The notes: a model not told the origin generated them from the sequence alone. Counted from the first letter of the stretch, positions 2,000-64,000 are shown. The stretch: DNA of 64,000 nt from an uncultured candidate division WWE3 bacterium (GCA_903879985.1 CAIRNR010000007.1:465519-529518); one strand, 5' to 3'. Made by a program: numbers and translations.

Positions 2000-2722
2000 T
2001 TACCAAGAACCGCCAAGCTCTTCCACTAAGTTCTTTGTGTATCTTAAGACAGGTATTGTGGTGGAGTAGTCTAAGCGAGATGGGCCTAGGACTGCAATAT
2101 TTCCACTTCTTTTGCCTGTATTGTAAGGTGCGAAAATAACGGTGCATTGCTTTAGTTTATCCACACCTATTTCTTCTTCTATTAAGCAGCGAATATCTCC
2201 ACCCATTGGTGCATTTTGAAATACTTTGTCTAACAGTTCGTAGTTGTCTAGTAAAATCAATGCGGCTTTTGCAACGTCAATATCCCAGAACTCTTTATGA
2301 TCTAAAACATTTACGGCTCCTGCATAAGTTATATGACCTTCGTTTGTTGTGATTATGGCCAATAACTTTGTTTGTTCAGCTAAGGCAAGTGCGGCTTCGT
2401 GTAAAAGCTTTTCAAACTGAAATCTGTTTGTCCAAAGACGTTGTTTTAAAGCGACTTCCTGCAAAACAGGAACCTCTGCTTCATGCATGATTTCTTCTAG
2501 GTAAAGTCTATATGCTTGGCGGGTAGGTACGCGGCCTGATGATGTATGGAGCATTTCCAAAAAGCCAAGATCAATAAGTTTAGCCATTTCATTTCTAACA
2601 GTTGCAGCTGAGCATCTTAAATTGTATTTGGTGACTATTTCTATCGAACCAACCGGCTCGGCGCTTTGAATATATTCATTAATAATTGCCTGTAGCAACT
2701 GTGTTTGTCTGTCGCTTAGCAT
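2000..2722 (-). CDS. hrcA: Heat-inducible transcription repressor HrcA (short form, 240 aa)
   Basis: An N-terminal wHTH (LSDRQTQLLQAIINEYIQSAEPVGS) and its position upstream of grpE-dnaK support the call. Confidence 0.8.
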   Translation of the reverse strand: MLSDRQTQLLQAIINEYIQSAEPVGSIEIVTKYNLRCSAATVRNEMAKLIDLGFLEMLHTSSGRVPTRQAYRLYLEEIMHEAEVPVLQEVALKQRLWTNRFQFEKLLHEAALALAEQTKLLAIITTNEGHITYAGAVNVLDHKEFWDIDVAKAALILLDNYELLDKVFQNAPMGGDIRCLIEEEIGVDKLKQCTVIFAPYNTGKRSGNIAVLGPSRLDYSTTIPVLRYTKNLVEELGGSW

Positions 2723-10986: not shown

Positions 10987-11008
10987 ATTTGTATTCTACC
11001 AGAGGGAG

Positions 11009-18289: not shown

Positions 18290-18344
18290 TGATAGATTAT
18301 ACAAGTTAGTTTTGGGTAATGTGCGCGTGTGATAGAATTCCACC

Positions 18345-20396: not shown

Positions 20397-22067
20397 ATGC
20401 TCAATCAAAATTCCAATAAACCAACTAAATATATCTTTGTATCTGGCGGTGTTATTTCTGGCCTTGGAAAAGGAATAATAATGTCGTCGTTATCTTTACT
20501 TTTAAAACAAGCGGGTTATACCGTTTCGCCAATGAAGGCTGACATGTATTTAAACATTGATGCCGGCACAATGAACCCTTTGGAACATGGCGAATCTTTT
20601 GTTACTGAAGACGGAAAAGAAACTGATTTAGATTTAGGTCACTACGAGCGTTATTTAAATATCGATTTACATGCAAATAATTACATGACGATGGGTCAAA
20701 TATATTCTGAAGTTTTAGCAAAGGAGCGCGCTTTGGAATATCACGGTAAATGTGTAGAAGGTCATATTCATATTCCAGAAGCAATTATTGAACATATTGA
20801 AAGAAATAATAAAGACGCTGAAGTTGTCTTAATAGAAATTGGTGGCACTGTTGGGGAATATCAAAACATTTTATTTTACGAAGCCGTTCGTCGTTTTAAA
20901 CAGAAGCATAAGAACGATACTATTTTGGTTCACGTAGTTTACTTGCCGGTTCCAAAGTTTTTAGGTGAAATGAAAAGTAAACCTGCTCAAGCTTCTATTT
21001 ACGAATTATATAAGCTTGGTGTTTCTCCTGACTTTGTTATTTGCCGAAGTGAAGACGCTGTTGATGAAAAACGTCGTGGTTCTATTTCGTTTAACACGGG
21101 TGTTCCTGCAGATCACATTATTTCCAGTCCTGATGTCGATACTGTTTACAAAGTTCCGCTTGTTTTACAGGCGCAAAATTTTGAAATGTTAGTTCAGCAA
21201 GATTTAGGGTTATCGGAACCAAAAAAATCTGATCTAAGTTCTTGGCAAGCAAAGATAGATAAGATTAATGCTTTAACTGATTCTGTAACTATTGGTATTG
21301 CAGGAAAATATTTTGTTTCAGGAAATTTCAGTTTAGAAGATTCATACGTATGCGTTATTGAAGCTATTAAACACGCTTGTTGGTCCCTCAATTTAAAACC
21401 AAACATTAAATGGTTCGATGTTGAAAATTTGGATAAAGAAGAAGTAGCAAAATGTGACGGCATTATAGTTCCACAAGGTTGGGGTTCACGTGGCGTTGAA
21501 GGAAAAATCGAAACAGTTAAGTTGGCTCGCGAAAAACAGATTCCATATTTGGGACTTTGTTTCGGTATGCAAATGGCTGCCATAGAATTTGGTCGCGATG
21601 TTTTAGGTTTTGAAAAAGCAAATTCGGCCGAGGTAGACGAAAAAACAAAATATCCAGTTATTCACGTTATGCCAAACCAAGAAGAATTGTTAAAGAAACA
21701 TCAATATGGTGGAACTATTCGACTTGGTGCATGGCCTTGCTTAGTTCAAAAAGGTTCGTTGCTTGAGGAATGTTATAAAAAATGGGGAGGTAGCCGACTT
21801 GATGAAAATAATATCGCTATGGAACGTCATAGACATAGATATGAGTTTAATAACGAATATAAGGTTCAATACGAAAAAGCAGGTATGGTATTTAGTGGCA
21901 CATCTCCCGATGGAGAAATAGTTGAAACAATGGAGTTGCCAAAAGATAAACATCCATTCTTTTTAGGCACGCAGTATCATCCTGAATTTAAGTCTAGGTT
22001 TGAGTCGCCACATCCAATTTTTGTTGGTTTTATTGAGGCGAGCCGAAAAAACCAGAAGCGCGCCTAA
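20397..22067 (+). CDS. pyrG: CTP synthase
   Basis: KYIFVSGGVISGLGKG N-terminus and a glutamine amidotransferase C-domain (GLCFGMQ). Confidence 0.95.
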   Translation: MLNQNSNKPTKYIFVSGGVISGLGKGIIMSSLSLLLKQAGYTVSPMKADMYLNIDAGTMNPLEHGESFVTEDGKETDLDLGHYERYLNIDLHANNYMTMGQIYSEVLAKERALEYHGKCVEGHIHIPEAIIEHIERNNKDAEVVLIEIGGTVGEYQNILFYEAVRRFKQKHKNDTILVHVVYLPVPKFLGEMKSKPAQASIYELYKLGVSPDFVICRSEDAVDEKRRGSISFNTGVPADHIISSPDVDTVYKVPLVLQAQNFEMLVQQDLGLSEPKKSDLSSWQAKIDKINALTDSVTIGIAGKYFVSGNFSLEDSYVCVIEAIKHACWSLNLKPNIKWFDVENLDKEEVAKCDGIIVPQGWGSRGVEGKIETVKLAREKQIPYLGLCFGMQMAAIEFGRDVLGFEKANSAEVDEKTKYPVIHVMPNQEELLKKHQYGGTIRLGAWPCLVQKGSLLEECYKKWGGSRLDENNIAMERHRHRYEFNNEYKVQYEKAGMVFSGTSPDGEIVETMELPKDKHPFFLGTQYHPEFKSRFESPHPIFVGFIEASRKNQKRA

Positions 22068-22076
22068 CGCTTGGAC

Positions 22077-22170
22077 GCGATACATCAGCGCAGCTGTTCT
22101 GGCGTAATCGCCCGATCAGCGCAGCTGATATAACACCAACGTGATACATCAGCGCAGCTGATATAATGTA
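22077..22170 (+). promoter_or_regulatory. Three tandem copies of a promoter/operator module (gatacATCAGCgcaGCTGAT-ataat) ending in the rsmA extended -10
   Basis: Repeat units start at 22081, about 22112 and 22143. The last one ends TGaTATAAT, 6 nt before the rsmA ATG. The core is the palindrome ATCAGC-N3-GCTGAT. Confidence 0.5.
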
Positions 22171-22173
22171 CCC

Positions 22174-22959
22174 ATGTTTGCGCCTAAAAAAGAACTAGGT
22201 CAAAACTTCTTAAGTGATCCTGAAATTGCCACAAGCATGATCTCAGGCCTTGATATTACCGCCGGAAACGACGTTATTGAGATTGGTCCGGGCCGTGGGT
22301 TTTTAACCGAGCAACTTGCCAAAAAGGCTGTAGCCGAAGAATTTGATTTTTACGCTGTCGAACTGGATAAACGCTTTTACGAGCACCTCCAACGAACCTT
22401 TGTCGACAATCCAAATGTGCATATCGTAAACGCAAACATCTTAGATTTCCTTCCAAAGTACACAAAACCTGAAAACAAAAGTGTGAAAATACTTGGTTCT
22501 TTGCCTTATTACATAACTTCGCCAATCGTTCACCAAATTATACGTATGGCGGTCAGTCAACCAGATGAATGCGTGTTGTTGATACAAAAGGAAGTAGCCG
22601 AAAAAATTGTAGCACCCGCGCCAGATTCTTCTTATATGTCTGTTTTTGTACAAACTTTTTTTGAGGTTACATATCTTTTTACCATTCCACGCGAAAAGTT
22701 TAGTCCTGTGCCACAAGTTGATGGAGGAGTAATTAAGCTGGTTAAACGCAGTGAACTTGGTAAAGAATTTGGTGTTGATTTAACCCGAGAATTTGTCACT
22801 AAATATGAAGGTTTTTTGCATAAAGCCTTTAAGAATCCTCGCAAAATGATGAACAAACCTTTTAGCCAGGAAGAATTAGATCGCGCAGGAATATCTGCAA
22901 GTTTGCGCCCTCAAAATTTAAATTGGAAAGAATGGTTGAATTTCTATTTAAAGTTTTAA
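22174..22959 (+). CDS. rsmA: 16S rRNA (adenine1518/1519-N6)-dimethyltransferase RsmA/KsgA
   Basis: KKELGQNFL N-terminus, an EIGPGRG SAM motif, and a NLPY-type region. Confidence 0.9.
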   Translation: MFAPKKELGQNFLSDPEIATSMISGLDITAGNDVIEIGPGRGFLTEQLAKKAVAEEFDFYAVELDKRFYEHLQRTFVDNPNVHIVNANILDFLPKYTKPENKSVKILGSLPYYITSPIVHQIIRMAVSQPDECVLLIQKEVAEKIVAPAPDSSYMSVFVQTFFEVTYLFTIPREKFSPVPQVDGGVIKLVKRSELGKEFGVDLTREFVTKYEGFLHKAFKNPRKMMNKPFSQEELDRAGISASLRPQNLNWKEWLNFYLKF

Positions 22960-24629: not shown

Positions 24630-24703
24630 CTCTTGTTGTACATGCTAAAAGGTCAGATAAATAAAATTGTCTGGCCTTTATTTTTTGGTGATATACTAGC
24701 CCT

Positions 24704-26885: not shown

Positions 26886-26928
26886 TCGCCATGTGAATTT
26901 CAAATTCCCGTGGCGATTTTTTTACCCC
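26886..26928 (+). terminator. Intrinsic terminator (plus strand)
   Basis: atcgccatg...cgtggcgat stem followed by ttttttt. Confidence 0.6.
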
Positions 26929-29798
26929 TTATACGCAAAAGGACACAAATCTCTATAATCACACCAACTACAATGCATCCCGGGAGTAGCTGTAAAGTTG
27001 GCCTTTTTCAATTCTTCCATAACATTAAATATTTGATCGCGTTGTTCCTCTAGTTGCAAAGGTGTACGGGTGGTGGATAACTTTTCGCCGCTTTCTACAA
27101 AATAATAACTTAGCAAAGTTGGGTTAAGTCCAAATGCTTCTTTTGCGGCTATAGCGTAAATGGAAACCTGTGCGTCCTTATCAACATCTTTTTGAGTTTT
27201 GGTTTGGCCTGTTTTGTAATCTATAATTTCCACGCCACCGTCAGGTGCTGCGTCGATACGGTCAATTTTTCCATAAAACTTAATTCCGTTTAGACGTAAC
27301 GTAAAAGGTTTTTCCAAACCAATGTGTTTAACGTGAAGTGGATTATTTTTTTCATAATATGCGGTAAGCAGTTTTTTTCCGTTCTCAAAATATAAGTTGC
27401 GGTGATTTTCATCCATGTAGCCCAGCGGTTGCCATTTTTCTTCATACACCTGCATAAGTTGTTCTAAAGATAAGTCTTCGTCAAACATTTTTTTCAAATG
27501 GAATTCACGCAAACTTTCGTGAATTGTTATACCAAAACTTAACGCGTGGTTTGGTGCTGTTGGAATTCGGAGAACATATGAAAATTTATATTTTAATGGA
27601 CAAGTTAAAAACGTATCCATTTGTGTAAAACTCAATGAGTCAGGTTTAAAAGATTTTATTATTGGTGTGGTGTCAGGATTTCTAAAACCGGAATCTACGC
27701 CAAATAATCCAGTTTGTGTTTGTCGATTTTTAATATCTTCGGCCGAAATTTCTTCAGGTTTAATTCCTGTTTCCTGAAGGTAACCACTTGGAGTTTTGTC
27801 ACGTTTACCGCCGTAATTTTTACCGTGAGTTAAATACAAATATTTGCATGCGCGGGTCATACCAACGTAAAAAAGTCTGCGCTCTTCTTGGATGTGCTCG
27901 TCACCTGTAGGAAGTGTTTCTTTGATTAACTCGTTTGGTATTTCAATAACGTCAGATTTATTTCTTGTTGGGAATCTGTCGGCAACAAGGTTAACTAAAA
28001 ATACAACTGGAAACTCTAAACCCTTTGATGCATGAACAGTCATTAAGTTTACCGTGTCTATATCTTCTATTTCGGCTTGAGCTGGGTTATCTCCGGCATC
28101 TATTATCAAATCTAAATAGTCCACAAAGTCTATTAATGTAGGTAAGTTTTTGTTTTCCTCGTGGTAATCAACTTCGAATCTTTTTATGATCCCCAAAAAT
28201 ATGTCCAAGTTTTTTATGGCCATTGAATTCTCAATTGATTCTTCTTGAGTGAACTGGCTCACATATTCAATTGATGTAACTAAATTAAAGACTAATTGTG
28301 TGGGCGATGTTTTTGTTATCTCCGCTTGATATTTTCTTATTTTCTCTTTAAGGGAAATGACTTCTGCATTTTGAGATTCGTTAATTGTTTCCCAAAGATC
28401 TTGTTTTTTGTAACGGGAACTCGTGAGAAGATTTGAGATTTCTTCAAAAGGAATGTTTAAAGTACTTATGTTTAGTGTGCGATATAAACTTATATTGTCT
28501 TTTGGATTTAAAACAACTTTTAGAAGTGCAATAATATCTCGAATTTCGTCCTGATCGTATAAACCTCGGTTTCCAACTAATTGATAAGGAAGCCCATATT
28601 TTCTAAGCGCCAACATAAATGGATCTAAATGGCTGTTTGCTCTTGCCAAAATTGCGATGTCTTTGTAAGTATACTGAGGTTCTTTTGCCAAAATATCCTG
28701 AATCTCTTTTACAACAAACTCAACTTCATCTTCCAAAGTTTCGGTATGAATAATGTGTGGTGCGTCTCCTGTTTGATCGGCTTTACTTATTAACTTTTTT
28801 GAGATTCCCAAGCGCGATTCTAAAGTATCCGGGTTATTGTTTTGAATTAGCTTGTACGATGGATCCAATATTTTTTGAGTAGAACGATAGTTTTCCAATA
28901 GTGTAATCATCTCGGCTTTTGGATAATCTTCCATGAATTGTAAAATATTTGAAACGGCAGCTCCACGAAATTTGTAAATTGATTGTGAGTCATCTCCGAC
29001 GGCAATTAAACTTCTTTCGCCCATTTCTTGCGGACACATCATTTTTATTAATTCGTATTGGGCATAGTTGGTATCTTGAAACTCGTCGAGCAGTACGTGT
29101 TTAAATTGATCCTGATATTTCTTTAGTATGTTTGGCCTTTGTTTAAAAAGTTCTATTGTCCAAGTTATTAAGTCGCCAAAGTCCATGCGCGAGTTTGCCA
29201 TTTTAAGCTCAGAATATCTTTCGTAAATGTAGGCAAGTTCTTTAAATCTTTTGGTTTCTTCTTCGGATTCAAAGGTTGATGTTTCCACAAACTTTGTAAA
29301 GTCTGTTGGCATAATATTTTCATCTTGAAGTCGTGACATGAACTTTAAAAAGGCGCCGATAAATTTTGTTGGGTTACCCAGCGGCCTAAAATATTGAAGA
29401 TTTAATTTAAAGATATTTCTTCTTAGCAAGATCCATTGATCAGGTCCGGAAAGTATTTTGTATCCTGGGTCTAATCCAATTTCGATTCCTTCAGATCGTA
29501 GCAATCGGTCGGCAAAAGAGTGGAATGTGCACACCCAAGGTTCTTCGTAACCTAAAGGCATAACATCGCTTAATCTATTTAGCATTTCGGCCGCAGCTTT
29601 TTCGGTAAATGTTAAAGCTAAGATTTCTTTTGAGTTTACGTTTTCATTTGTAACAAGATTTTTTATACGTTCCGTAATAACGCGTGTTTTTCCTGTGCCT
29701 GCTCCCGCCACAACTAATAAGGGACCTGTTTTATGTAATACTGTTTTTGATTGATTTTCGTTTAGTTCAAATGTTGTCTTGGTTTTTTTAGCAGTCAT
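26922..29798 (-). CDS. Single-polypeptide helicase-nuclease: UvrD-like SF1 helicase fused to a C-terminal PD-(D/E)XK (RecB/Cas4-type) nuclease with a Cys cluster
   Basis: 958 aa. Helicase motifs: Walker A AGAGTGKT, DEFQDTN, LMTVHASKGLEFP. Nuclease motifs: GKIDRID...EIIDYKTG. Cys residues in CPLKYK and CSWCDYRDLC give a C...CxxCx5C pattern. Confidence 0.75.
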   Translation of the reverse strand: MTAKKTKTTFELNENQSKTVLHKTGPLLVVAGAGTGKTRVITERIKNLVTNENVNSKEILALTFTEKAAAEMLNRLSDVMPLGYEEPWVCTFHSFADRLLRSEGIEIGLDPGYKILSGPDQWILLRRNIFKLNLQYFRPLGNPTKFIGAFLKFMSRLQDENIMPTDFTKFVETSTFESEEETKRFKELAYIYERYSELKMANSRMDFGDLITWTIELFKQRPNILKKYQDQFKHVLLDEFQDTNYAQYELIKMMCPQEMGERSLIAVGDDSQSIYKFRGAAVSNILQFMEDYPKAEMITLLENYRSTQKILDPSYKLIQNNNPDTLESRLGISKKLISKADQTGDAPHIIHTETLEDEVEFVVKEIQDILAKEPQYTYKDIAILARANSHLDPFMLALRKYGLPYQLVGNRGLYDQDEIRDIIALLKVVLNPKDNISLYRTLNISTLNIPFEEISNLLTSSRYKKQDLWETINESQNAEVISLKEKIRKYQAEITKTSPTQLVFNLVTSIEYVSQFTQEESIENSMAIKNLDIFLGIIKRFEVDYHEENKNLPTLIDFVDYLDLIIDAGDNPAQAEIEDIDTVNLMTVHASKGLEFPVVFLVNLVADRFPTRNKSDVIEIPNELIKETLPTGDEHIQEERRLFYVGMTRACKYLYLTHGKNYGGKRDKTPSGYLQETGIKPEEISAEDIKNRQTQTGLFGVDSGFRNPDTTPIIKSFKPDSLSFTQMDTFLTCPLKYKFSYVLRIPTAPNHALSFGITIHESLREFHLKKMFDEDLSLEQLMQVYEEKWQPLGYMDENHRNLYFENGKKLLTAYYEKNNPLHVKHIGLEKPFTLRLNGIKFYGKIDRIDAAPDGGVEIIDYKTGQTKTQKDVDKDAQVSIYAIAAKEAFGLNPTLLSYYFVESGEKLSTTRTPLQLEEQRDQIFNVMEELKKANFTATPGMHCSWCDYRDLCPFAYKG

Positions 29799-44529: not shown

Positions 44530-44853
44530 TTACTTTTGAGGTAAATGTAAATCAGGGGTTTCAACTTTCTCCTTTGCTTCCTTTTCTTTTTGTTTTGCTT
44601 CTTTTTTTAATTCGCCCAACTTCCACATAAATAGTCGGCCACGCGTCACGGCATGTTCAGATGCTTTTATATAATCACGTGCGCGTTCCAATAAAACTCG
44701 GTCAGTTGATTTTGCTAGTTTTATATATAAAGAACGATGTGGCACGTCTCCGAGTTCATCGGCTAACAAATTGCCGTATGCTTGAAATTCGTAACTGTTA
44801 CGGCGATCACCTTTAAGACTTTTCTTTTTAATAATATCTTTTATATCTTGCAC
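44530..44853 (-). CDS. Hypothetical protein with a Lys/Glu-rich C-terminal tail
   Basis: 107 aa; I recognise no family. Confidence 0.4.
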   Translation of the reverse strand: MQDIKDIIKKKSLKGDRRNSYEFQAYGNLLADELGDVPHRSLYIKLAKSTDRVLLERARDYIKASEHAVTRGRLFMWKLGELKKEAKQKEKEAKEKVETPDLHLPQK

Positions 44854-44904
44854 TGTTTGGATTCTATCAGCTTTGTATTTGGGTAGCTATGGGTGAGCAA
44901 CTAT

Positions 44905-47592: not shown

Positions 47593-48585
47593 TTAGCTTA
47601 ATTCATACCTCGATGATTTTGTGCTTCCGGACTTTTGAACAATACCCTTATCAAGCAATACTTTTAAATCTCTCAATACTGAGTCTTCGGAAACGTTGGG
47701 GAACACAGTTGTAAAATCTTTATTTTGTAATATTCCATAATCCTGCAAGTATTCCACGATTCTTTCTTGTCTTTGAGATAAACGCACGCGACCTGTGGCT
47801 TTAGCAATTTTAGTATCACGAACAAGCAACTTAACTTTTTCAGATACATTTGAAACTTCGTAGCTTAATCCTTCGCAAAAATATCCGGTCCATGCAGAAA
47901 AGTCTGTGTCTATTTCGGTTGATTCGTTTAGGTTCTTTTCATAGTCACGTTTGGTTTTATAATAGTAATCTTCTAAAGATATATAACTTTTGAATCCATA
48001 ACCTTTTGATTTTAAAGTTGTATATACAATTAAATTTGCCACGGTTTCGTTGTAATTTTCAAATGGTTTAATTGTTTCCAATCTAGCTTTAAGTATTGAA
48101 GCCGTAATTATTGGGTGAGTTTCGCGAGCATCCATCGAGTTGTACCAGTCAAAGAGTTGAACAATTTCGGCCAAAATTTCCACAGGATCTGTTTTGTTTG
48201 TTTGACGTGTAGTTCTGTAGGAACCTTGCTTTGTCTCCGACAACATTTTTTGTGTAAGTATTCTATGGAACTTTTTTAGTTCCTCTTCGTGAAGCTCGTT
48301 GCTTGTAGAAATAATATTGGTTTCGTTAAGTGCTGTTTGTAGATTAGATATAAAAGGTGATTCTGCCTTTGCCATTCCATCAACAATTGATTTAACTGTT
48401 TGTGTGTCTAGGTTTGTTCCAAGTGAGGCAAGCGTATTTTGCAAGGTTTTGATTATTGCGTCTTTTTGAAGTTGTTTTTCCCAAACTGGCAGAATTGTAG
48501 TGTTATCAATTACGGCTTTTCCGTATTCAACGCTGCTGATGCTGGAAAGGATGCTTGCAGTAATTGTGTATTCGGGGACGAACAT
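47593..48585 (-). CDS. Fic/DOC-fold protein with degenerate active-site motif and C-terminal wHTH
   Basis: KPFENYNETVANL aligns where the canonical HPFxDGNGRxxR lies: His is Lys and GNGR is YNET. The C-terminus carries a winged helix (RIVEYLQDYGILQNKDF...). Confidence 0.65.
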   Translation of the reverse strand: MFVPEYTITASILSSISSVEYGKAVIDNTTILPVWEKQLQKDAIIKTLQNTLASLGTNLDTQTVKSIVDGMAKAESPFISNLQTALNETNIISTSNELHEEELKKFHRILTQKMLSETKQGSYRTTRQTNKTDPVEILAEIVQLFDWYNSMDARETHPIITASILKARLETIKPFENYNETVANLIVYTTLKSKGYGFKSYISLEDYYYKTKRDYEKNLNESTEIDTDFSAWTGYFCEGLSYEVSNVSEKVKLLVRDTKIAKATGRVRLSQRQERIVEYLQDYGILQNKDFTTVFPNVSEDSVLRDLKVLLDKGIVQKSGSTKSSRYELS

Positions 48586-50192: not shown

Positions 50193-51010
50193 TTTAACGG
50201 TTGGCAGTTGGGGCAAATATAAGAACCACGCCCGCCAATGCTTTTTACTTCAACCTTTGTACCACATGTGGGGCATGCCTTCTTCATGAAAATTCTGAAA
50301 AAGTTTTGTTGTGTTCCGGCGTTTCCAAATATATCCACATACATTCTATCCGAAAGTGTGGAACCGCGATGTGCAATTCCTTCTTTTAAAACAGTGCGTA
50401 GTGACTCTAATAGATTTTCAGCATCCTGTTGGGTTAACTGTTGTGTGGTTGTTTCAGGATGAATCTTTGATAAAAATAAGGCGTCGTTGGCATAAATATT
50501 TCCAATTCCCGCTACGAGAGATTGTTCTAAAAGTGCTTTTTTAATATTTGTTTTTTTCTTTTGAAGAATATTTAAAAATTCTCGCGCGGTAAGTCCTTCG
50601 TCTAAGGGCTCTGGACCGTACTTTTTATATAAGTCTTCTATATCGTGGTCTTGGGCGTACGCAAGTTTTCCAAAAGCGCGCATGTCGGTGAAGATTAAAT
50701 TTTTTCCATTATCTAAAACAAACACAGCTTTAACCCATTTATCCGTTTTAACATCGGGATCGCGCAACAAAACTTGTCCGGTCATAGCCAAATGAATAAT
50801 CATAGAGTCGCCGGTTTCAAAATCGATCACAATGTTTTTGGCAATACGTCTGGCACCTTTAACTTTTTTACCTTTAACATTTGCTACAAACTCATCGGCG
50901 GTAGGTTTAATATTGTAAGTCTTTGCGACTACAACCTTTTTAATAGTGCAACCGGAAATATGTTTATTTAAATCTGATGCTATTGTGTGTACTTCAGGAA
51001 GTTCTGGCAT
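50189..51010 (-). CDS. mutM: Formamidopyrimidine-DNA glycosylase (Fpg/MutM)
   Basis: MPELPEV N-terminus with the catalytic Pro2, and a C-terminal zinc finger CPTCG...CPNC. Confidence 0.85.
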   Translation of the reverse strand: MPELPEVHTIASDLNKHISGCTIKKVVVAKTYNIKPTADEFVANVKGKKVKGARRIAKNIVIDFETGDSMIIHLAMTGQVLLRDPDVKTDKWVKAVFVLDNGKNLIFTDMRAFGKLAYAQDHDIEDLYKKYGPEPLDEGLTAREFLNILQKKKTNIKKALLEQSLVAGIGNIYANDALFLSKIHPETTTQQLTQQDAENLLESLRTVLKEGIAHRGSTLSDRMYVDIFGNAGTQQNFFRIFMKKACPTCGTKVEVKSIGGRGSYICPNCQPLK

Positions 51011-52127
51011 GATCTTTTTGGTGCTGTTCCCATTTTTCCATGACAAAATCGTAATATTCTTTTTGGAATCTTTGCTTTGAGAACTTTTGCACGCTTTCTA
51101 TAATCTTTTCTGAATTATATACACCTTTTTTAATGGCTTCTTCAAACTCTAGTACTTTTCCTTTTAAACATTCCACGGTGACTTCGTCAAATAACATTCC
51201 GTTTTGACTTTCGAACACGGTTTCTAAATGGCCACCTGACTTATGTACTAATACAGGTTTTCCCTGAGACATTGCTTCTATTGGAACAATTCCAAAGTCT
51301 TCATCATCAACGGCGTTTATAAGTCCTACTGAGTTTTGGATTAAGGCTTTCTTTTCTTGGTCGCTGGCGTTTGATACAAAAATAATATTTTCTTTGGCAA
51401 GGCTTCGTAGCTTTTCTTCTTCAATACCTCTTCCTACTACAACTAGAGTTTTGCCTAATTCATTAAAAGCTTTAATTACCACGTCAAAATGTTTGTAAGC
51501 AGACATGCGACCGACAACAATAAAATATGGTGTGTCTATTTTTAATGCGGGTTCTTGTTTTTTGTATTCAATTTCTACTGGGGGGTATATTACAACCGAG
51601 TCTCGTTTATAAAACTTCTTAATTCTTTTTTGAATTTCAAAACTATTTGCGACTAAAAAGTTTGGTCTTTGCGCCGCGGCAAAATCCCATACACGTAATA
51701 GTGCATCGAGCACAGGAATAACTGGTTTAAAATACCATTTGTCTCTTTTTGCACTTTCCACACTGTATTTATATAAAAACCTTGGTGGTGTATGTATAAA
51801 ACTTATATGCAGTTGTGAAGGTTTTGTTAATACACCTTTTGCCCAACAGGCGCTGTCCGAAAGTATTAAGTCGTATTCGCGTAGGTCAAAGTTTTCAAAA
51901 ACAAATGGCATTAAAAAAGTAAGATACTTTGGAAATGTTCGAATCAATGCATTTTTAAGGTAGTGAATTTTACGATTATTTATTTGTGCCGATAGTCTTG
52001 TTGGTTCGTATAGGCTTGTATACACTTCGGCGTCGGGGAATAGTTCTGAAATAGCCTCGAATGTTTTCTCAGCTCCGCCATATTGATTTAGGTAGTCATG
52101 TATAAGTGCAACGCGTGGTTGTGCCAT
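50994..52127 (-). CDS. Family 4 (GT-B) glycosyltransferase
   Basis: EDFGIVPIEAMSQGKPV (the E-x7-E GT4 motif). Confidence 0.8.
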   Translation of the reverse strand: MAQPRVALIHDYLNQYGGAEKTFEAISELFPDAEVYTSLYEPTRLSAQINNRKIHYLKNALIRTFPKYLTFLMPFVFENFDLREYDLILSDSACWAKGVLTKPSQLHISFIHTPPRFLYKYSVESAKRDKWYFKPVIPVLDALLRVWDFAAAQRPNFLVANSFEIQKRIKKFYKRDSVVIYPPVEIEYKKQEPALKIDTPYFIVVGRMSAYKHFDVVIKAFNELGKTLVVVGRGIEEEKLRSLAKENIIFVSNASDQEKKALIQNSVGLINAVDDEDFGIVPIEAMSQGKPVLVHKSGGHLETVFESQNGMLFDEVTVECLKGKVLEFEEAIKKGVYNSEKIIESVQKFSKQRFQKEYYDFVMEKWEQHQKDHARTS

Positions 52128-52249
52128 ATACCCATTCTATCAGCTTCGTCTCGCGTTCGCTATGTGGCAGAGGATGTTTTCTATTTCTAATAGAGAAGTT
52201 ACGCCTTTTATTCTTGACATACCATGAAAGATATGAGTTCATAAATATC

Positions 52250-52753
52250 ATGAACAAAGGCTTTAGTTTGCCCATAGTTTTAATAGTTGCTTTGTTTATA
52301 TCACTGCCCGTGATGTTCTTCTTCTTTTCCACACGTGCTACAGCGCCAAACGTAAAAGGTGCATTTACAACTGCAAATGTTGGTTTTGATGTTCAGATAA
52401 GTTCAAATAAAGGTACATGGGATTTGTTTGAATTTTTATGTACAACAAAAGAAGAATGTACCACTTCATTAACAGGTGGAAAAAGGCTTGAAACAATTGG
52501 TGGTGGTCAAGTTAAAACATACGATGTAGTCGTTGAGCCCGATCAAGCGTGGAATGACTACAAATTTATTAAACTTTTTGTTAAATCAGGTTGGGGATCT
52601 CCATTTAGAACATTTTCTGTTTCAGATCCAGCACAAATTCCAGGGGCCGAAGTTACAAAAATAACTGAGGGCTTAAGTGATTACAATATAATTTTGCTGC
52701 CTATTACTTCTGTCCAAAATAGTTTTTACACCTCCATCAACTTCACAGACTAA
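52250..52753 (+). CDS. Secreted/anchored hypothetical protein
   Basis: 167 aa from the internal Met, with a signal/anchor segment (FSLPIVLIVALFISLPVMFFFF). Confidence 0.45.
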   Translation: MNKGFSLPIVLIVALFISLPVMFFFFSTRATAPNVKGAFTTANVGFDVQISSNKGTWDLFEFLCTTKEECTTSLTGGKRLETIGGGQVKTYDVVVEPDQAWNDYKFIKLFVKSGWGSPFRTFSVSDPAQIPGAEVTKITEGLSDYNIILLPITSVQNSFYTSINFTD

Positions 52754-52770
52754 TCTGCTATCATTAATCA

Positions 52771-53271
52771 ATGCAAGTTATAGATAGGACTTCCACGCTT
52801 TGGCAATATATCAAACCTGAGATTCGTGAGCTTATTGAAGATGGTGAAATTATTTTAAATTTTGTTTACAAATATCACGAAAAAGAAGAAATATCGGACT
52901 ATTCATTTTTAGTTTTTCCATTTTCAAAAGCTTATGAAGGTTTTTTAAAAGGATTTTTTTTGGATTTAGGTTTGATAAGGGAAGAAGAGTATTTCAGTGA
53001 TGATATAAGAATTGGTCGTATATTAAACCCGTATTTTACTCACGAAAAGGCAAATGTTTTTAACAAAGTTTGTGGTGGAGGAAAAGCCGGTACTGAAGTA
53101 GCTCACAGACTTTGGAATATTTGGAAACGCGGACGAAACTTAGTTTTTCATTATTTTCCGCACAACTATCGACGGTTAGGCTACGATGAAGCTTTGGATA
53201 TTATTAACGAAGTTATTGGCGCAATGAATACGGCGGTTATGCACTGCAATGTTGACGGCAAGAAGCATTGA
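52771..53271 (+). CDS. Hypothetical protein with HEPN-like Rx4H motif
   Basis: 166 aa, predicted helical, with RGRNLVFHYF (R-x4-H) near the C-terminus. Confidence 0.4.
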   Translation: MQVIDRTSTLWQYIKPEIRELIEDGEIILNFVYKYHEKEEISDYSFLVFPFSKAYEGFLKGFFLDLGLIREEEYFSDDIRIGRILNPYFTHEKANVFNKVCGGGKAGTEVAHRLWNIWKRGRNLVFHYFPHNYRRLGYDEALDIINEVIGAMNTAVMHCNVDGKKH

Positions 53272-53345
53272 TTTCTATCGCACCGCGATACATCATCAAA
53301 GCTGTTCTATCGCACCGCGATACATCAGCGAAGCTGATATAATAG
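53271..53345 (+). promoter_or_regulatory. Two tandem copies of the same promoter/operator module seen at 22077-22170, ending in the mnmA extended -10
   Basis: ctatcgcaccgcgatacatcatcaaagctgtt / ctatcgcaccgcgatacATCAGCgaaGCTGATataat; TGaTATAAT sits 8 nt before the mnmA ATG. Confidence 0.5.
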
Positions 53346-53351
53346 GCCAAT

Positions 53352-54431
53352 ATGGTGGAAGTATCTTCAGAAAATACAATTAAACAACGCGTAGCAGTTG
53401 GCTTAAGTGGCGGAGTTGATTCTTCGGTTGCTGCACTATTGCTCAAAAACGAAGGTTACGAAGTTGTTGGCGTATATATGCAATGCTGGGATATAAAGGA
53501 AGAAGGTTGTGCTGCCGATGAGGACAAAGCCTATGCCGTTCAAACTGCGGCTAAGCTTGGAATAAAGTTTGAAGCTTTGGATTTTAGAGAAGCTTACAAA
53601 CAGAGAGTTATTCAATATTTTTTCGACGAATATTCTAAAGGACGTACTCCAAATCCCGACGTTATGTGTAACAAAGAAATTAAGTTTGGAATATTTTTTG
53701 ATTGGGCAATGGAACATGGTTTTGATTTTATTTCCACTGGACATTATGCTCGGGTTAATAAAACTGGCGCCGGTTACGAATTATTAAAAGGAATAGATAC
53801 CGGCAAAGACCAATCCTACTTTTTGTATCGATTAGGTCAGGAACAATTGAGCAAAACTTTGTTTCCGGTCGGCGGTTTCAAAAAACCACAAATCAGGGAA
53901 TTGGCCAAAGAGAATATGTTACCTGCATATAAACGACCCGAGAGTATGGGCATATGTTTTATTGGTGAAGTTGATATTAAGAATTTTTTAGAGCAACGTA
54001 TTGAACATAAAAATGGAAATGTTTTAAATACTCAGGGCGAAATTATTGGTGAGCACGATGGCGTTTGGTTTTTAACAATTGGTCAGCGCCACGGATTTAA
54101 AGTTAATAAGTACACAGGAGTTCCTTTGTATGTTGTTAATAAAGACGCTGAAAAAAATGAAGTAGTTGTTGGTGTGTATGAGGAAGCTTTGCGAAATCAG
54201 TTTGTTGTTACGGATTATAGTTGGATTTTGAATGATCCCTTTGGAGACAATAATGAACTTGCATGTGATGTAAGAATTCGCCATTTGGGAAAAATGAACA
54301 ACGTCACGTTAACTAAAGTTGGAGATACTATAAATGTAAAACTTGAAAATTCTATTTTTGGTGTAGCGTCCGGACAAAGCGCTGTGTTTTATATTGACGA
54401 TTTAACTTTGGGTGGCGGTATTATTTTGTGA
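53352..54431 (+). CDS. mnmA: tRNA-specific 2-thiouridylase MnmA
   Basis: PP-loop VAVGLSGGVDSS and catalytic Cys contexts (YMQCWD, MGICF). Confidence 0.9.
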   Translation: MVEVSSENTIKQRVAVGLSGGVDSSVAALLLKNEGYEVVGVYMQCWDIKEEGCAADEDKAYAVQTAAKLGIKFEALDFREAYKQRVIQYFFDEYSKGRTPNPDVMCNKEIKFGIFFDWAMEHGFDFISTGHYARVNKTGAGYELLKGIDTGKDQSYFLYRLGQEQLSKTLFPVGGFKKPQIRELAKENMLPAYKRPESMGICFIGEVDIKNFLEQRIEHKNGNVLNTQGEIIGEHDGVWFLTIGQRHGFKVNKYTGVPLYVVNKDAEKNEVVVGVYEEALRNQFVVTDYSWILNDPFGDNNELACDVRIRHLGKMNNVTLTKVGDTINVKLENSIFGVASGQSAVFYIDDLTLGGGIIL

Positions 54432-58176: not shown

Positions 58177-58469
58177 TCCGGAAGTCTTGACTTTACCCAT
58201 TTATATTGATATTAATACAACACTAGTGTAATATCACTTGTCGTACGTTGATAACTAAATAGTTAAGAGCAAAAAAGCACAAATCTTTTTAAATCGCTTT
58301 AGCCGGCGATGTACAAAAGATACAATTTATTGCCACGTCCCAAGTGGTAGTAAATAAAATTGCCATAGCCAATATGGCGACTTTCAATTCGCAAGAATCG
58401 AAAGGCAAGAAGAATCGACCAAACCAAAACGTTTATACGCTATTGACGCATTAATAAACGTTTTTTTCT

Positions 58470-59906
<1,437 letters not shown>

Positions 59907-60310
59907 CTAAGGGAGAAAATCCGTATTTTTGATTGAAGGACCATTGATCTAGTACTTGCTATTAGGAAATGCCTTTGAAATATAAAGTACACTCAACATT
60001 GGATTAGCTCTAAAATGTTGTTTTAATTAGCTGTCGTCAAAACGCCTTTAGACAGCAGAGTAGGTTTTAAAGCGAGCCTAAACTTTTACAACCGGAAGAT
60101 CCTTCTTGCCTTTTGGCACTTGAAATTGAAATTTGTGTAATTAACTCTTAACTTGAATTTAGAAAAAAGCATCCTTAATTGGATGCTTTTTTTTTGAGCT
60201 TTAGCGAGAAAAACGTCAGCAGACATTTTGTGGCTATTATTGAAAACCAGCTGTTCTGGTGGTATAAACTTATTCTTGATACAAAAATCTATGTGAGGAG
60301 GAGAGCGATA

Positions 60311-60943
60311 ATGGAAAAAAACAATTTGCCTGTAGACGAAGCAGCTGGTTTGGTAACGAGAATAATAGAGCAGATAAAAGGAGCAAAGGGCGCGGCTTTC
60401 ACGTATGGAAATATCCGGAAATACCAGGCGCAAGCGGGTATTGGCCACACCGGCGCAAAATTCAATCGAACCGAATGGGAATGTGCGTGGCGGACAGTGT
60501 TGGATATGCCTGATATTAAAATCCTGTGCGGTAGCGGTCTTCACGCCAGTGTTTATTACTTACCTGGGGCTAAGGATGCTACCAAAAATGGTAAAAATGG
60601 CAAAATTATCCAACCGGCTGTTGATATGACTCCGGTTATCGAGGCTCAACCCCCAGCCGCTAAGCAAGAATCAGCGCCTACGGTTGCAGTTCCTGCACGT
60701 CGCCCATTGGTTGAAAAAAGGCAGCCCACGGTTAAAACCAAACGTGCGGTGGTAACAAAGAAAGATCATGTAATCCTGTCCGGCGTGCAAGTAACGTGGG
60801 AAGGCACCATTCCTCTGACGCTGTCGCTGGAAAAAGGACAAACAATCCAGGTGGAGCAGCACAATAGAGATGGGGAAAGTCTTGGCATGTTTACACTAAA
60901 TGGTCCATGCACGATTACTCTGAAAAAAGTTATCCGGGAATAA
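60311..60943 (+). CDS. Hypothetical protein, GC-rich (about 50%) gene lying between 16S and 23S
   Basis: 210 aa from the Met preceded by a GAGGAGG SD, with a terminator downstream. I recognise no family. Confidence 0.5.
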   Translation: MEKNNLPVDEAAGLVTRIIEQIKGAKGAAFTYGNIRKYQAQAGIGHTGAKFNRTEWECAWRTVLDMPDIKILCGSGLHASVYYLPGAKDATKNGKNGKIIQPAVDMTPVIEAQPPAAKQESAPTVAVPARRPLVEKRQPTVKTKRAVVTKKDHVILSGVQVTWEGTIPLTLSLEKGQTIQVEQHNRDGESLGMFTLNGPCTITLKKVIRE

Positions 60944-60969
60944 TTTAAAATCTGGTTAACAATCAATAG

Positions 60970-61008
60970 GCGGTCGCTTGTTTTAATAACATCCGGCCGC
61001 TTTTTTTT
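60970..61008 (+). terminator. Intrinsic terminator
   Basis: gcggtcg...cggccgc stem followed by tttttttt. Confidence 0.5.
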
Positions 61009-61021
61009 GTGTTTGGGTAAA

Positions 61022-61098
<77 letters not shown>

Positions 61099-61158
61099 TC
61101 ACCCGTGAATAGTACGTGCATGATAACATAAAACTAGGGTCGATGGTATACTGGTGGC

Positions 61159-61800
61159 ATGAAATCAGGCAAGCACTATGCTCTAAATTTCTTAATTGTT
61201 GCGTTATTATTAGTGGCTTTTTACTTGTGGTTTAACCAATCGTTAAAACAACAAACCCTAAAGAATTATTCCAAATACAAAATACAGGAAGCGTTGTTTA
61301 CCGCAGATTGCACGATTGCCGTAAAAATAAAGGATGAAACTTTGTCCCTAAAAACAGGTTATCAAGATCTTGGAATTTCATGTTTAGATCCAAAATTTAT
61401 CGTTAAAATTTCTCCTTCCGGGAAATATTTGGCTCATGTTGATATAGCAGGTAGTGCACCACAATTGCGTACATTTTTTACAGAGAAAACTAAATATCCT
61501 ACTTCCGATGTTTTCCTAACCTTTCCACCAGATACCGATTACGACTTTTCCTTACTGCCGGGCGATAAATTGGCTGTTTTGACTAGAGCTACAGCAACTA
61601 TTCCCGCTAAACTTACGGTTTACGATTTACCCTTAAGTTATAAAAATTATCCCAATGTGTTTAATACTCAAACAATTGTTCAAGAGCAGAATTTTCCTAA
61701 ATCAGCTAGCACCTACTGGTATGTTGAAACTGTCGACAAAACGAGTATAAGAATATTAGATAAAAACAAAGTCCCACTTGCCCAAATAAAACTAAACTAA
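61159..61800 (+). CDS. Signal-anchored hypothetical protein
   Basis: 213 aa with an N-terminal TM (ALNFLIVALLLVAFYLWF). Confidence 0.45.
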   Translation: MKSGKHYALNFLIVALLLVAFYLWFNQSLKQQTLKNYSKYKIQEALFTADCTIAVKIKDETLSLKTGYQDLGISCLDPKFIVKISPSGKYLAHVDIAGSAPQLRTFFTEKTKYPTSDVFLTFPPDTDYDFSLLPGDKLAVLTRATATIPAKLTVYDLPLSYKNYPNVFNTQTIVQEQNFPKSASTYWYVETVDKTSIRILDKNKVPLAQIKLN

Positions 61801-61801
61801 T

Positions 61802-62806
61802 ATGAATAAAAAAGTAAATCCTAGAATAGTTACTGTCGGTGGAGGTACCGGTACTTTTGTTGTTTTATCCGGACTCAAAGATTATCCCCTAAATTTGTCA
61901 TCTATTGTTACTATGATGGACTCTGGTGGGTCTACGGGTAGATTACGTGATCAGTTGGGTGTTTTACCGCCTGGTGACTTGCGACAAGCCTTGGTAGCGC
62001 TGTCAGATTCAAAAGAGATATGGCGCAAGCTTTTTACTTATCGTTTTGAGAGTGGTGACTTAAAAGGTCACAACTTTGGAAACATTTTTATTTCAGCTTT
62101 AGAAAAAATAACTGGTTCAACTGCAGAGGCTATTAATTTGGCAACCGAAATTCTGCAAACAAAAGGAAATGTTTATCCTGTGACACTTTCAAATTGCACA
62201 TTGTGTGCCGGCTATGCAGATGGTTCCGTGGTTGAAGGTGAATCTAACATTGAAGAAATAGTTAAAGAGGGAAATAAGATTACACGCATGTACTTAACTC
62301 CCTCCGCTGTAATGAATTTGGAGGCTAAAAAAGAGCTGGAAAACGCCGATTTCATCATATTTGGCCCTGGTGACCTGTACACAAGTATTATTCCAAATCT
62401 ACTGGTCGAAGGCATGCCAGAAGTTTTGGCTTATTCCAGGGCAAAAAAGATTTTTATATTAAATGTTATGACTCGGTATGGACAGACCGATGGTTTTAAA
62501 TCTACAGATTTTATTTTCGAACTGGAAAGATATTTAGGAGGTATTTCATTAGATTATATTTTCATTAACGAAACTCGCCCAAGTCAGGAGGTTTTAGACT
62601 GGTATAGAGAGGTAGATAAGGCTCATTTTGTAGAAGATACAACTTTTGGAGGCTATTTTGACAATAGAAAGATACTAAGAGGTGATTTTTTGTCCAAAAA
62701 TAGGGTCGTTCAAGCGGCAAACGATCATGTAAAAAGGAGCCTAATTCGGCATGATCCAGACAAGATAGCAGAGGCTATTTATAAGCTTGTTGACAGAGAA
62801 TTTTAA
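61802..62806 (+). CDS. YvcK/CofD-family (UPF0052, gluconeogenesis-factor-like) protein
   Basis: IVTVGGGTGTFVVLSGLK, MMDSGGSTGRLRD, LPPGDLRQALVAL. Confidence 0.8.
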   Translation: MNKKVNPRIVTVGGGTGTFVVLSGLKDYPLNLSSIVTMMDSGGSTGRLRDQLGVLPPGDLRQALVALSDSKEIWRKLFTYRFESGDLKGHNFGNIFISALEKITGSTAEAINLATEILQTKGNVYPVTLSNCTLCAGYADGSVVEGESNIEEIVKEGNKITRMYLTPSAVMNLEAKKELENADFIIFGPGDLYTSIIPNLLVEGMPEVLAYSRAKKIFILNVMTRYGQTDGFKSTDFIFELERYLGGISLDYIFINETRPSQEVLDWYREVDKAHFVEDTTFGGYFDNRKILRGDFLSKNRVVQAANDHVKRSLIRHDPDKIAEAIYKLVDREF

Positions 62807-62991
62807 TAATGGTACATATGTATTTACCTTTTAGGAATTCAACTTCCTCAGGACTTAGGTCCATTTCTTGGAGTCACAAAACTTCAAGGAAGCTCTGAAT
62901 ATCCAAGTCAAACGTGAAATATAAATAAGTTAGTAAATGCGCCTTGATGTATAAGCTTAGTGCTGATAGACTGTGTAAGCTTTATGCGTCG

Positions 62992-63068
62992 GGGCCGTTA
63001 GCTCAGTTGGCTAGAGCGCTACATTTGCAATGTAGAGGTCAGGAGTTCGATTCTCCTACGGTCCACCA
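62992..63068 (+). tRNA. tRNA-Ala (anticodon UGC), CCA encoded
   Basis: GGGCCGT-TA-GCTC-AGTTGGCTA-GAGC-G-CTACA-TTTGCAA-TGTAG-AGGTC-AGGAG-TTCGATT-CTCCT-ACGGTCC-A-CCA, including the G3:U70 Ala identity pair. Confidence 0.85.
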
Positions 63069-63404
63069 AAAAGGTTTCGATTTTTTGTTTTGAAAACGCA
63101 CTCGCAAAGCTCGCGAAGTTTTCTTCAACAAAAAATCTACGCCACTGTGTTAATGCAGGTTAGTGAAAAATGCTTTGTTTAAGATTCCGTACGGTGAGGT
63201 TTAAATACTTTGCCATACGAAACTTTAAACAAAGTTGCGATACATCGCAGCTCAAAGTTTCGACTACGTCGAAGCTTTGCCGCTCGCTATGCTCGCAGCA
63301 AAGTGGATCTTTGAAAACTGAACAGAAAGTATCCAACAATTGAAAAACTCACAAACTTGAGGATCATCTCCCAGCCTTGGCGAGATGGTCTGTAGGTTTT
63401 TTAG

Positions 63405-64000
<596 letters not shown>

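Follow-up and report, generated by a model that had tools for sequence, protein, structure and literature searches.

Palindromic units upstream of rsmA and mnmA

The window analysed here, a 64-kb (64,000-nucleotide) stretch from a Patescibacteria/WWE3-like bacterium with 38% G+C, carries two co-directional plus-strand genes, pyrG (CTP synthase; 20397–22067; NCBIfam NF003792/TIGR00337, E ~1e-190) and rsmA/ksgA (22174–22959; TIGR00755, 183.5 bits against a cut-off of 171), that are separated by three copies of the core ATCAGCgcaGCTG at 22084, 22115 and 22148 (31 and 33 nt apart). The first unit begins 8 nt beyond the pyrG stop codon (TAA, 22065–22067). This distal unit (22076–22100), CGCGATAC-ATCAGCgcaGCTGTT-CT, has its right arm broken at the junction, terminates in GCTGTTCT on direct reading of the sequence, and has no -10. 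The second unit (22101–22134) runs from a small GGCG-taat-CGCC palindrome into a perfect 6-3-6 palindrome, ATCAGCgcaGCTGAT (22115–22129), and on to the hexamer TATAAC (22129–22134), having lost the 'gatac' flank; a T-to-C change at the last -10 position is established as disabling, and this hexamer is probably a dead copy of the -10. The promoter-proximal unit (22135–22167), ...CGTGATAC-ATCAGCgcaGCTGAT with its palindrome at 22148–22162, contains the sole full 25-mer of the locus, GATACATCAGCGCAGCTGATATAAT (22143–22167), and is joined to an extended -10, TGaTATAAT (TG 22159–22160, TATAAT 22162–22167), which ends 6 nt before the rsmA ATG.

The second locus lies upstream of mnmA (53352–54431, plus strand; NF001138, 417 bits), whose co-directional upstream neighbour encodes a 166-aa protein (52771–53271, plus strand; stop TGA at 53269–53271). 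Two exact-period units of 32 nt fill the space between them. The distal unit (53274–53305), TC-TATCGCaccGCGATA-c-ATCATCaaaGCTGT, combines a perfect first palindrome with a degenerate core, ATCATCaaaGCTGTT, while the proximal unit with its -10 (53306–53343), TC-TATCGCaccGCGATA-c-ATCAGCgaaGCTGA-TATAAT, has a perfect core (unit 53306–53337) whose final base doubles as the first T of the hexamer (TG 53335–53336, TATAAT 53338–53343). The palindrome TATCGCaccGCGATA, perfect and additional to the core, is present in both units, which differ from each other at three positions. The mnmA ATG lies 8 nt past the -10. The 166-aa gene is the second of two adjacent genes of ~166–167 aa without assigned function (52250–52753 and 52771–53271) that are syntenic upstream of mnmA in all relatives, and it has weak, sub-threshold matches to the RnlA toxin DNA-binding domain and to RNase LS-like HEPN domains.

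The initial annotation, made from the sequence alone, had described a palindromic unit repeated three times before rsmA and twice before mnmA; these copies were read directly from the sequence and were matched in 0 of 100 shuffles. The identities it gave to pyrG, rsmA/ksgA and mnmA hold, with NCBIfam matches above curated cut-offs, as does the duplication of the 32-nt unit at mnmA (TRF period 32, 2.0 copies, 93% matches). Its description of the rsmA copies as tandem needs qualifying: three copies are present at near-regular spacing, but TRF calls no array there because the inter-core segments differ. Similarly, the core that was said to be a perfect inverted repeat is perfect in only three of the five copies in the window and imperfect in the other two.

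A dispersed repeat family

All five copies of the ATCAGC-N3-GCTGAT unit in the 64 kb lie at these two promoters (three at rsmA, two of 32 nt each at mnmA), with none of the scatter through the window that would mark a generic repeat. In scans of the window, ATCAGCNNNGCTGAT gave six matches at ≤2 mismatches against 1.35 expected, a number equalled in 0 of 100 shuffles, and the 25-mer at ≤3 mismatches matched only the two promoter-proximal copies (0 expected). The family ranks top among the repeats of the whole window, and mismatch scans, repeat ranking and profile HMMs found no further copies in the rest of it. If one mismatch is allowed, each arm of the palindrome reaches 9 nt (TACATCAGC/GCTGATATA). 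The best gapped alignment between the rsmA and mnmA loci covers 60 nt at 76.7% identity and the best ungapped one 31 nt at 90.3%, while the flanking coding sequences (pyrG and rsmA versus the 166-aa gene and mnmA) are non-homologous. The rsmA and mnmA loci belong to one dispersed repeat family that is specific to this lineage.

The anatomy of this family was drawn from 11 cores at five loci, in ~72 kb of this species (five cores, two loci) and 42 kb of its closest other species (six cores, three loci), hereafter the sister species, whose RsmA and MnmA are 71% and 74% identical, respectively, and in which gene order is kept. The sister modules were found with a profile of the five window units. 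The unit, ~32–34 nt long, consists of two short palindromes, one variable (A) and one conserved (B). Palindrome A reads (T)ATCGC-N3-GCGAT(A), (A/G)TCGC-N3-GCGA(T/C) or variants. Palindrome B reads ATCnnC-RNA-GnnGnT, typically ATCAGC-GCA-GCTGAT, with the positions ATC..C..AG..G.T invariant among the 11 cores and an R-N-A loop that is closed by C:G and always ends in A. One to three units occur per locus, head-to-tail and all in gene sense, in the slot between the upstream stop codon and the downstream -10 (five loci), and their flanks (GATAC... and ...TTCT) place every unit in direct, gene-sense orientation. After a non-terminal copy comes (T/A)TCT and next an A palindrome, and after a terminal copy (A/G)TAnAAT. 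Centre-to-centre spacings are 31, 33, 32, 32 and 34 nt, with one further spacing of 60 nt that is out of helical phase, and in multi-copy arrays the degenerate copies are the distal ones. The 14-mer GATCAGCGCAGCTG is identical in both species amid intergenic DNA that is otherwise unalignable, and an 18-mer variant, CCGATCATCGGAGATGAT, is identical at two sister loci. Every module-bearing gene has a co-directional upstream neighbour (5/5 solid loci).

Two other promoters in the window may hold old, single units, although the evidence for them is borderline. On the minus strand, the promoter of a GT4 glycosyltransferase gene (50994–52127) carries a possible older, diverged unit 6 nt before the ATG (52134–52171; TCTG-CCACATAGCGAACG-CGAGACgaaGCTGA-TAGAAT) in which the left arm of palindrome B is gone; its local alignment scores to the family are 22–27, compared with 231 background promoter pairs whose scores reach 21.4 at the 99th percentile and 24 at most. 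A weaker and more diverged candidate, CATAGC-N13-AAGCTGATAGAAT (44861–44891, minus strand), lies 7 nt before the GTG of a 107-aa gene (44530–44853, minus strand). The two promoters have AAGCTGATAGAAT and an upstream CATAGC in common in the same register, but profile HMMs of the unit recovered the known copies only and detected neither the GT4 promoter nor that of the gene at 44530.

Extended -10 promoters close to the start codon

The short distance from -10 to start codon at both loci is a recurrent feature of the window. The pattern TGnTAnnnT ends exactly 6 nt ahead of the start codon in 11 of 68 ORFs and at 5–8 nt in 15 of 68, against ~0.08 expected per offset; examples lie at 10992–11000 (minus strand), 18330–18338 (plus strand) and from 35699. 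The usual distance between a -10 and the transcription start is ~7 nt, and from this distance and the layout at 11 of 68 ORFs we therefore infer that rsmA, mnmA and many other genes in the window are probably transcribed as leaderless mRNAs. A literature search for leaderless transcription in CPR bacteria found no paper describing it. The extended -10 TGATATAAT stands 6 nt before the rsmA ATG and 8 nt before that of mnmA, which matches the window-wide layout, and the assignment of the promoter at the last copy is therefore well supported. A consensus scan found no -35 at either locus.

Other genes in the window have clear GGAG Shine-Dalgarno sites, and the 3' end of the 16S rRNA retains CCUCC (59900–59906). 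The rRNA genes themselves are unlinked (58466–64000), with 16S at 58466–59906 and 23S starting 3.5 kb further on at 63409. The intervening stretch holds ORFs at 60179–60943 and 61159–61800, a CofD-like gene (61802–62806), tRNA-Ile(GAT) on the opposite strand (61028–61104) and tRNA-Ala (62992–63068); in relatives, LAGLIDADG-type ORFs occur in the same region (L093 10547–11464, L094 17556–18104). Elsewhere, hairpin and T-run terminators directly adjoin the extended -10 of the next leaderless gene, as at window positions 24650–24703 and before the sister rsmA (L050 3940–4003), a packing of terminator against promoter that leaves no spare spacer.

Comparison with the sister species and other relatives

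Neither rsmA nor mnmA bears the module in the sister species. The sister mnmA reads stop TGA-TT-TATAAT-acccgat-ATG, with 7 nt between the -10 and the ATG and a slot of only 2 nt between stop codon and -10, and the window locus corresponds to this sequence plus exactly 64 nt (2 x 32) between TGATT and TATAAT. At the sister rsmA, a canonical terminator hairpin with a T7 tract adjoins cacacTGTATAAT-gtgcat-ATG (6 nt). The surroundings of rsmA also differ: pyrG lies directly upstream in the window (22068) but is missing from that place in the sister (L050/L096), where the order is pcrA, a ~380-nt gap with a small antisense ORF, and rsmA. This places the rsmA module at the junction of a rearrangement.

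Modules in the sister species were instead located at an ATP-dependent DNA ligase gene (three cores; ...G ATCAGCgcaGATGTTCT ... G ATCATCggaGATGATCT GTCGCataGCGAC CG ATCAGCgcaGCTGG-TAAAAT-aacctc-ATG), at pgk (two cores) and at an addA-like helicase-nuclease gene (one core). All are in gene sense, and the last GnTG takes the place of the TG in an extended -10, 6–9 nt before the ATG. The window orthologues of these three genes lack the module and have the -10 hexamer and/or the downstream bases in common with the sister, for example TGCTAAAATaggctcATG here versus TGGTAAAATaacctcATG in the sister for the ligase promoter, and TATAATacaaaaacgATG versus TAGAATacaaaagcgATG for addA. The module-bearing genes are unrelated in function, and the sets differ completely between the two species. 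The small regulon for rRNA and tRNA modification that the initial annotation had proposed is contradicted by this distribution, while its fallback, a mobile promoter cassette, agrees with the comparative data.

The comparison also alters the view of the promoter itself. The last copy had been credited with supplying the extended -10; the position of this element 6–8 nt from the ATG, in a leaderless layout, stands, but the copy does not supply it. The hexamer and the bases up to the ATG are ancestral and common to module-free orthologous promoters, and the module gives at most the TG(A). Promoters that carry the module and those that lack it have orthologous -10 and downstream bases, which makes the unit a lineage-specific insertion placed immediately upstream of the ancestral -10. 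The comparison leads to the conclusion that there were at least five gains, in two lineages and at promoters that are not orthologous, every one of them adjoining an ancestral -10 on its 5' side.

Some neighbouring genes differ between the species as well. The sister AddA-like helicase-nuclease (L096 14462–18445) has 1327 aa and contains Hint/intein-splicing domains, while its window orthologue (26922–29798; 958 aa) has no intein. Upstream of the window DNA ligase gene, a gene on the minus strand (47593–48585) encodes a Fic-domain protein whose C-terminal part weakly matches a DeoR-type HTH. The sister has an extra 690 nt between the Fic and ligase genes (L079 2964–3651), comprising the module and ~570 nt without a Pfam match; an IS remnant was considered for these 570 nt and discarded, as no sign of one was found.

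More distant relatives (MnmA 68% and 65%, RsmA 58% identical; 37 kb read) have no module, the spacers before mnmA and ligase being short and free of it. In strains of the same species that are 97–100% identical to the window, the modules are identical, with no copy-number change and no SNPs where ~2 at most would be expected; in the 97% strain, 70 nt contain 0 SNPs where ~2 are expected, a difference that is not significant. This 97% strain has lost 3 nt immediately behind the mnmA start codon (ATGGTGGAAG versus ATGGAAG, 359 versus 358 aa; window 53352–53360 versus L077 4096) and carries G in place of A at one site in the 8 nt that separate the mnmA -10 from the ATG, with the 64-nt module unchanged. 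Searches further afield returned only background: GATACATCAGCGNAGCTG gave 40 single matches in unrelated taxa, about the number expected by chance, among 185,579 species-representative genomes, and ATCAGCGNAGCTGATATAA gave 24 single matches with unrelated flanks in JGI metagenomes, the source loci being among the matches in neither case. Four patterns searched in viral contigs (IMG/VR) gave chance matches or none, with no sign of a phage origin.

A proposed propagating promoter-upstream unit

We lean towards reading the module as a propagating and locally amplifying palindromic unit of promoter-upstream DNA, akin to REP/BIME sequences or mobile promoters, and not as an operator that couples rsmA to mnmA. 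The promoter-proximal unit ends in ...GCTG-(A/G) right before the ancestral TAnAAT, and because of this ending its last TG would fill the TG position of an extended -10 (TGnTAnAAT), a type of promoter that should need no -35. RNA polymerase would then start ~7 nt past the hexamer, on the A of the ATG or a base adjoining it, to give a leaderless mRNA. Distal units, ending in GCTG-TTCT or TATAAC, have no usable -10 and more decayed palindromes and are predicted not to fire; they are probably older copies displaced upstream by local duplication or repeated insertion. Spread to new promoters may have involved some copy mechanism, either hairpin-dependent transposition in trans or recombination, with slippage as a plausible source of local amplification. 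In so compact a genome the slot between stop codon and -10 may be almost the sole place that tolerates insertion, and a unit that restores the TG would keep the promoter working, so that selection could explain the fixed register.

Several observations weigh against the propagating unit as so described. A passive promoter spacer does not account for a B core that is perfect across species, and the fixed -10 register could equally be that of an operator that must overlap its promoter. Conservation this strict implies that selection acts on the sequence of the B core, and the candidate readers of that core are an enzyme that copies it, a regulator that binds DNA or some process at the RNA level. 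A Pfam/NCBIfam scan of the ~60 window proteins found no transposase domain, whether Y1/RAYT or other, and no target-site duplication could be demonstrated, the TG/TGA at the mnmA junction being ambiguous.

A regulator reading the core is a possible though rather unlikely alternative, in which palindrome B would be the operator of a dimeric helix-turn-helix global regulator. A repressor bound to B, which is centred near -19/-20 and covers the TG with the start of the -10, would occlude RNA polymerase, tandem copies ~32 bp (three helical turns) apart would bind cooperatively, and the site would have spread to assorted housekeeping promoters as regulon membership turned over between species. The perfect 6-3-6 palindrome, extensible to 9-nt arms and overlapping the promoter, is what such a site would look like, as are its symmetric conservation (ATC..C / G..G.T invariant in 11 copies from two species), a core identical across species despite ~28% protein divergence, the five spacings of 31–34 nt, and the -10 register fixed at all five loci. 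Classical dimeric repressor operators likewise place a dyad of 15–21 bp near -20 over an extended -10, with auxiliary copies about three helical turns off. Unlike their targets, however, those of the module are unconserved between sister species, which have no locus in common, and rsmA, mnmA, ligase, pgk and addA are functionally unrelated. The arms also change jointly (ATCATC/GATGAT, ATCGGC/GACGAT, and the G.T pair ATCGGC/GCTGAT), which a protein reading both half-sites would not favour, and the distal copies have broken arms, with one spacing out of helical phase. The initial annotation had suggested looking for a co-occurring HTH regulator, but none adjoins either locus, the DNA-binding candidates of the window being HrcA and the Fic protein. 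A literature search for ATCAGC/GCTGAT operators found none, the one top match examined having the strings only in PCR primers.

Known operators were also compared. An hrcA-grpE-dnaK cluster is present (2000–2722, minus strand); a CIRCE/HrcA site was rejected as an identity for the module, since the window has no CIRCE-like inverted repeat at ≤3 mismatches and only a half-site, TTAGCACTC, in the hrcA promoter. The sister modules at ligase and addA prompted the idea of a LexA box, which the module motif does not appear to resemble.

A more specific proposal, which is speculative and which we consider unlikely, is that the module is a minimal (~30 nt), hairpin-based, non-autonomous element of Patescibacteria that inserts at the TG/-10 of leaderless promoters, or else that the B hairpin is the site of a global factor specific to leaderless promoters. 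The TG|A junction at mnmA, with a possible duplication of 2–3 nt, and the proximal copy being the youngest, would fit repeated insertion at a hot spot.

A role in RNA or single-stranded DNA appears improbable. In such a role, REP/BIME-like hairpins would serve the upstream gene (pyrG or the 166-aa gene) as its 3' UTR, stabilising the 3' end, or stopping or insulating read-through so that the downstream leaderless promoter is not occluded. REP sequences do stabilise mRNA and terminate transcription (PMC8049555 and references therein), the intergenic RNAs here fold better than shuffles (z = -3.1 and -2.5), and the A and B elements each reach about -4 kcal/mol as DNA. The B stem shows compensatory or G.U-compatible changes (two pairs, three cells; A-T to G-C or G.T, and G-C to T-A) around its constant R-N-A loop with invariant A and C:G closure, the upstream neighbour is co-directional at all five solid loci, and a canonical terminator fills the same slot before the sister rsmA. 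However, the stems are short and weak and are followed by TTCT or ATATAAT instead of a U-tract, and a plus-strand terminator scan found nothing in either region. The covariation is only suggestive, being reached by 37 of 500 shuffles with 11 copies and by 231 of 500 with eight, and is not significant. The unit is absent from every convergent gene end in the window, where 3'-end stabilisers would be expected, and a 3'-UTR role leaves the exact fusion of TG and -10 unexplained. Rfam 15 returned nothing at gathering score, only sub-threshold chance matches.

Finally, it is highly improbable that the repeats are functionless slippage duplications of promoter DNA made alike between loci by occasional gene conversion. 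In favour of such a process, rsmA copy 2 clearly duplicates the core together with a -10 (TATAAC), identity within the 2 x 32 nt array is 93%, and the 97–100% identical strains show neither copy-number change nor SNPs, in a comparison where ~2 SNPs at most were expected. However, it cannot account for five non-orthologous loci in two species that share 14–18 nt of identical core and one architecture amid unalignable DNA.

Relation to known repeat families

The propagating unit can be set beside several described systems. [quoted passage not shown] Like REP/BIME, the module consists of dispersed palindromes in two-type mosaic arrays with short linkers, is locally amplified and dispersed, and has a lineage-conserved core. 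In contrast, its units are head-to-tail without the inverted doublets of REPINs, its stems are only 5–7 bp, and it lacks the GT[AG]G head of the REP family. No RAYT gene, the single-copy partner of REPINs, turned up in the sequence read, and where REP sequences occur at gene 3' ends, each module copy keeps one register relative to the -10 of the leaderless gene to which it is fused.

Correia repeat-enclosed elements (CREE) measure ~100–155 bp, carry long inverted repeats at their ends and duplicate a TA target. The module, by comparison, is 32 nt and tandem, has no terminal inverted repeats and no demonstrable duplication, and gives at most the TG, not the -10. It resembles CREE as a small non-autonomous repeat with inverted symmetry whose end is joined to the flank at a promoter; in Neisseria, the CREE end and flank together form a promoter that alters expression of the adjacent gene (PMC2649163).

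Putative mobile promoters (Matus-Garcia, Nijveen and van Passel 2012, PMC3488235) are near-identical stretches of upstream DNA before non-homologous genes of one genome whose adjacent coding sequences cannot be aligned, and they have been read as the propagation of regulatory DNA. The module is similarly shared before genes with non-homologous flanking coding sequences, and it falls narrowly short of the mobile-promoter threshold of ≥50 nt at ≥80% (60 nt at 77% gapped, 31 nt at 90% ungapped; PMC3488235). Unlike a mobile promoter, its shared part leaves out the ancestral -10 and is a repeated 32-nt palindromic unit, with no single long promoter. As the module departs from the defining features of REP/REPIN, Correia elements and mobile promoters, it is therefore assigned to no named family and is filed with small dispersed palindromic repeats and mobile promoters as a variant of that kind.

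Implications for promoter evolution in Patescibacteria

Patescibacteria (CPR) have tiny, gene-dense genomes with few repeats or regulators, and because these organisms are uncultured the evolution of their promoters is essentially unknown. For annotation, the present case is a warning that shared upstream palindromes in one genome window do not justify calling a regulon. If the module is indeed a minimal element that inserts at leaderless promoters, it would rewire or boost promoters in genomes with almost no other non-coding DNA. The conserved 15-nt hairpin core offers a handle for finding the factor that copies or binds it, and a family held in fixed register on different housekeeping promoters in sister species would exemplify the turnover and propagation of promoters in this group.
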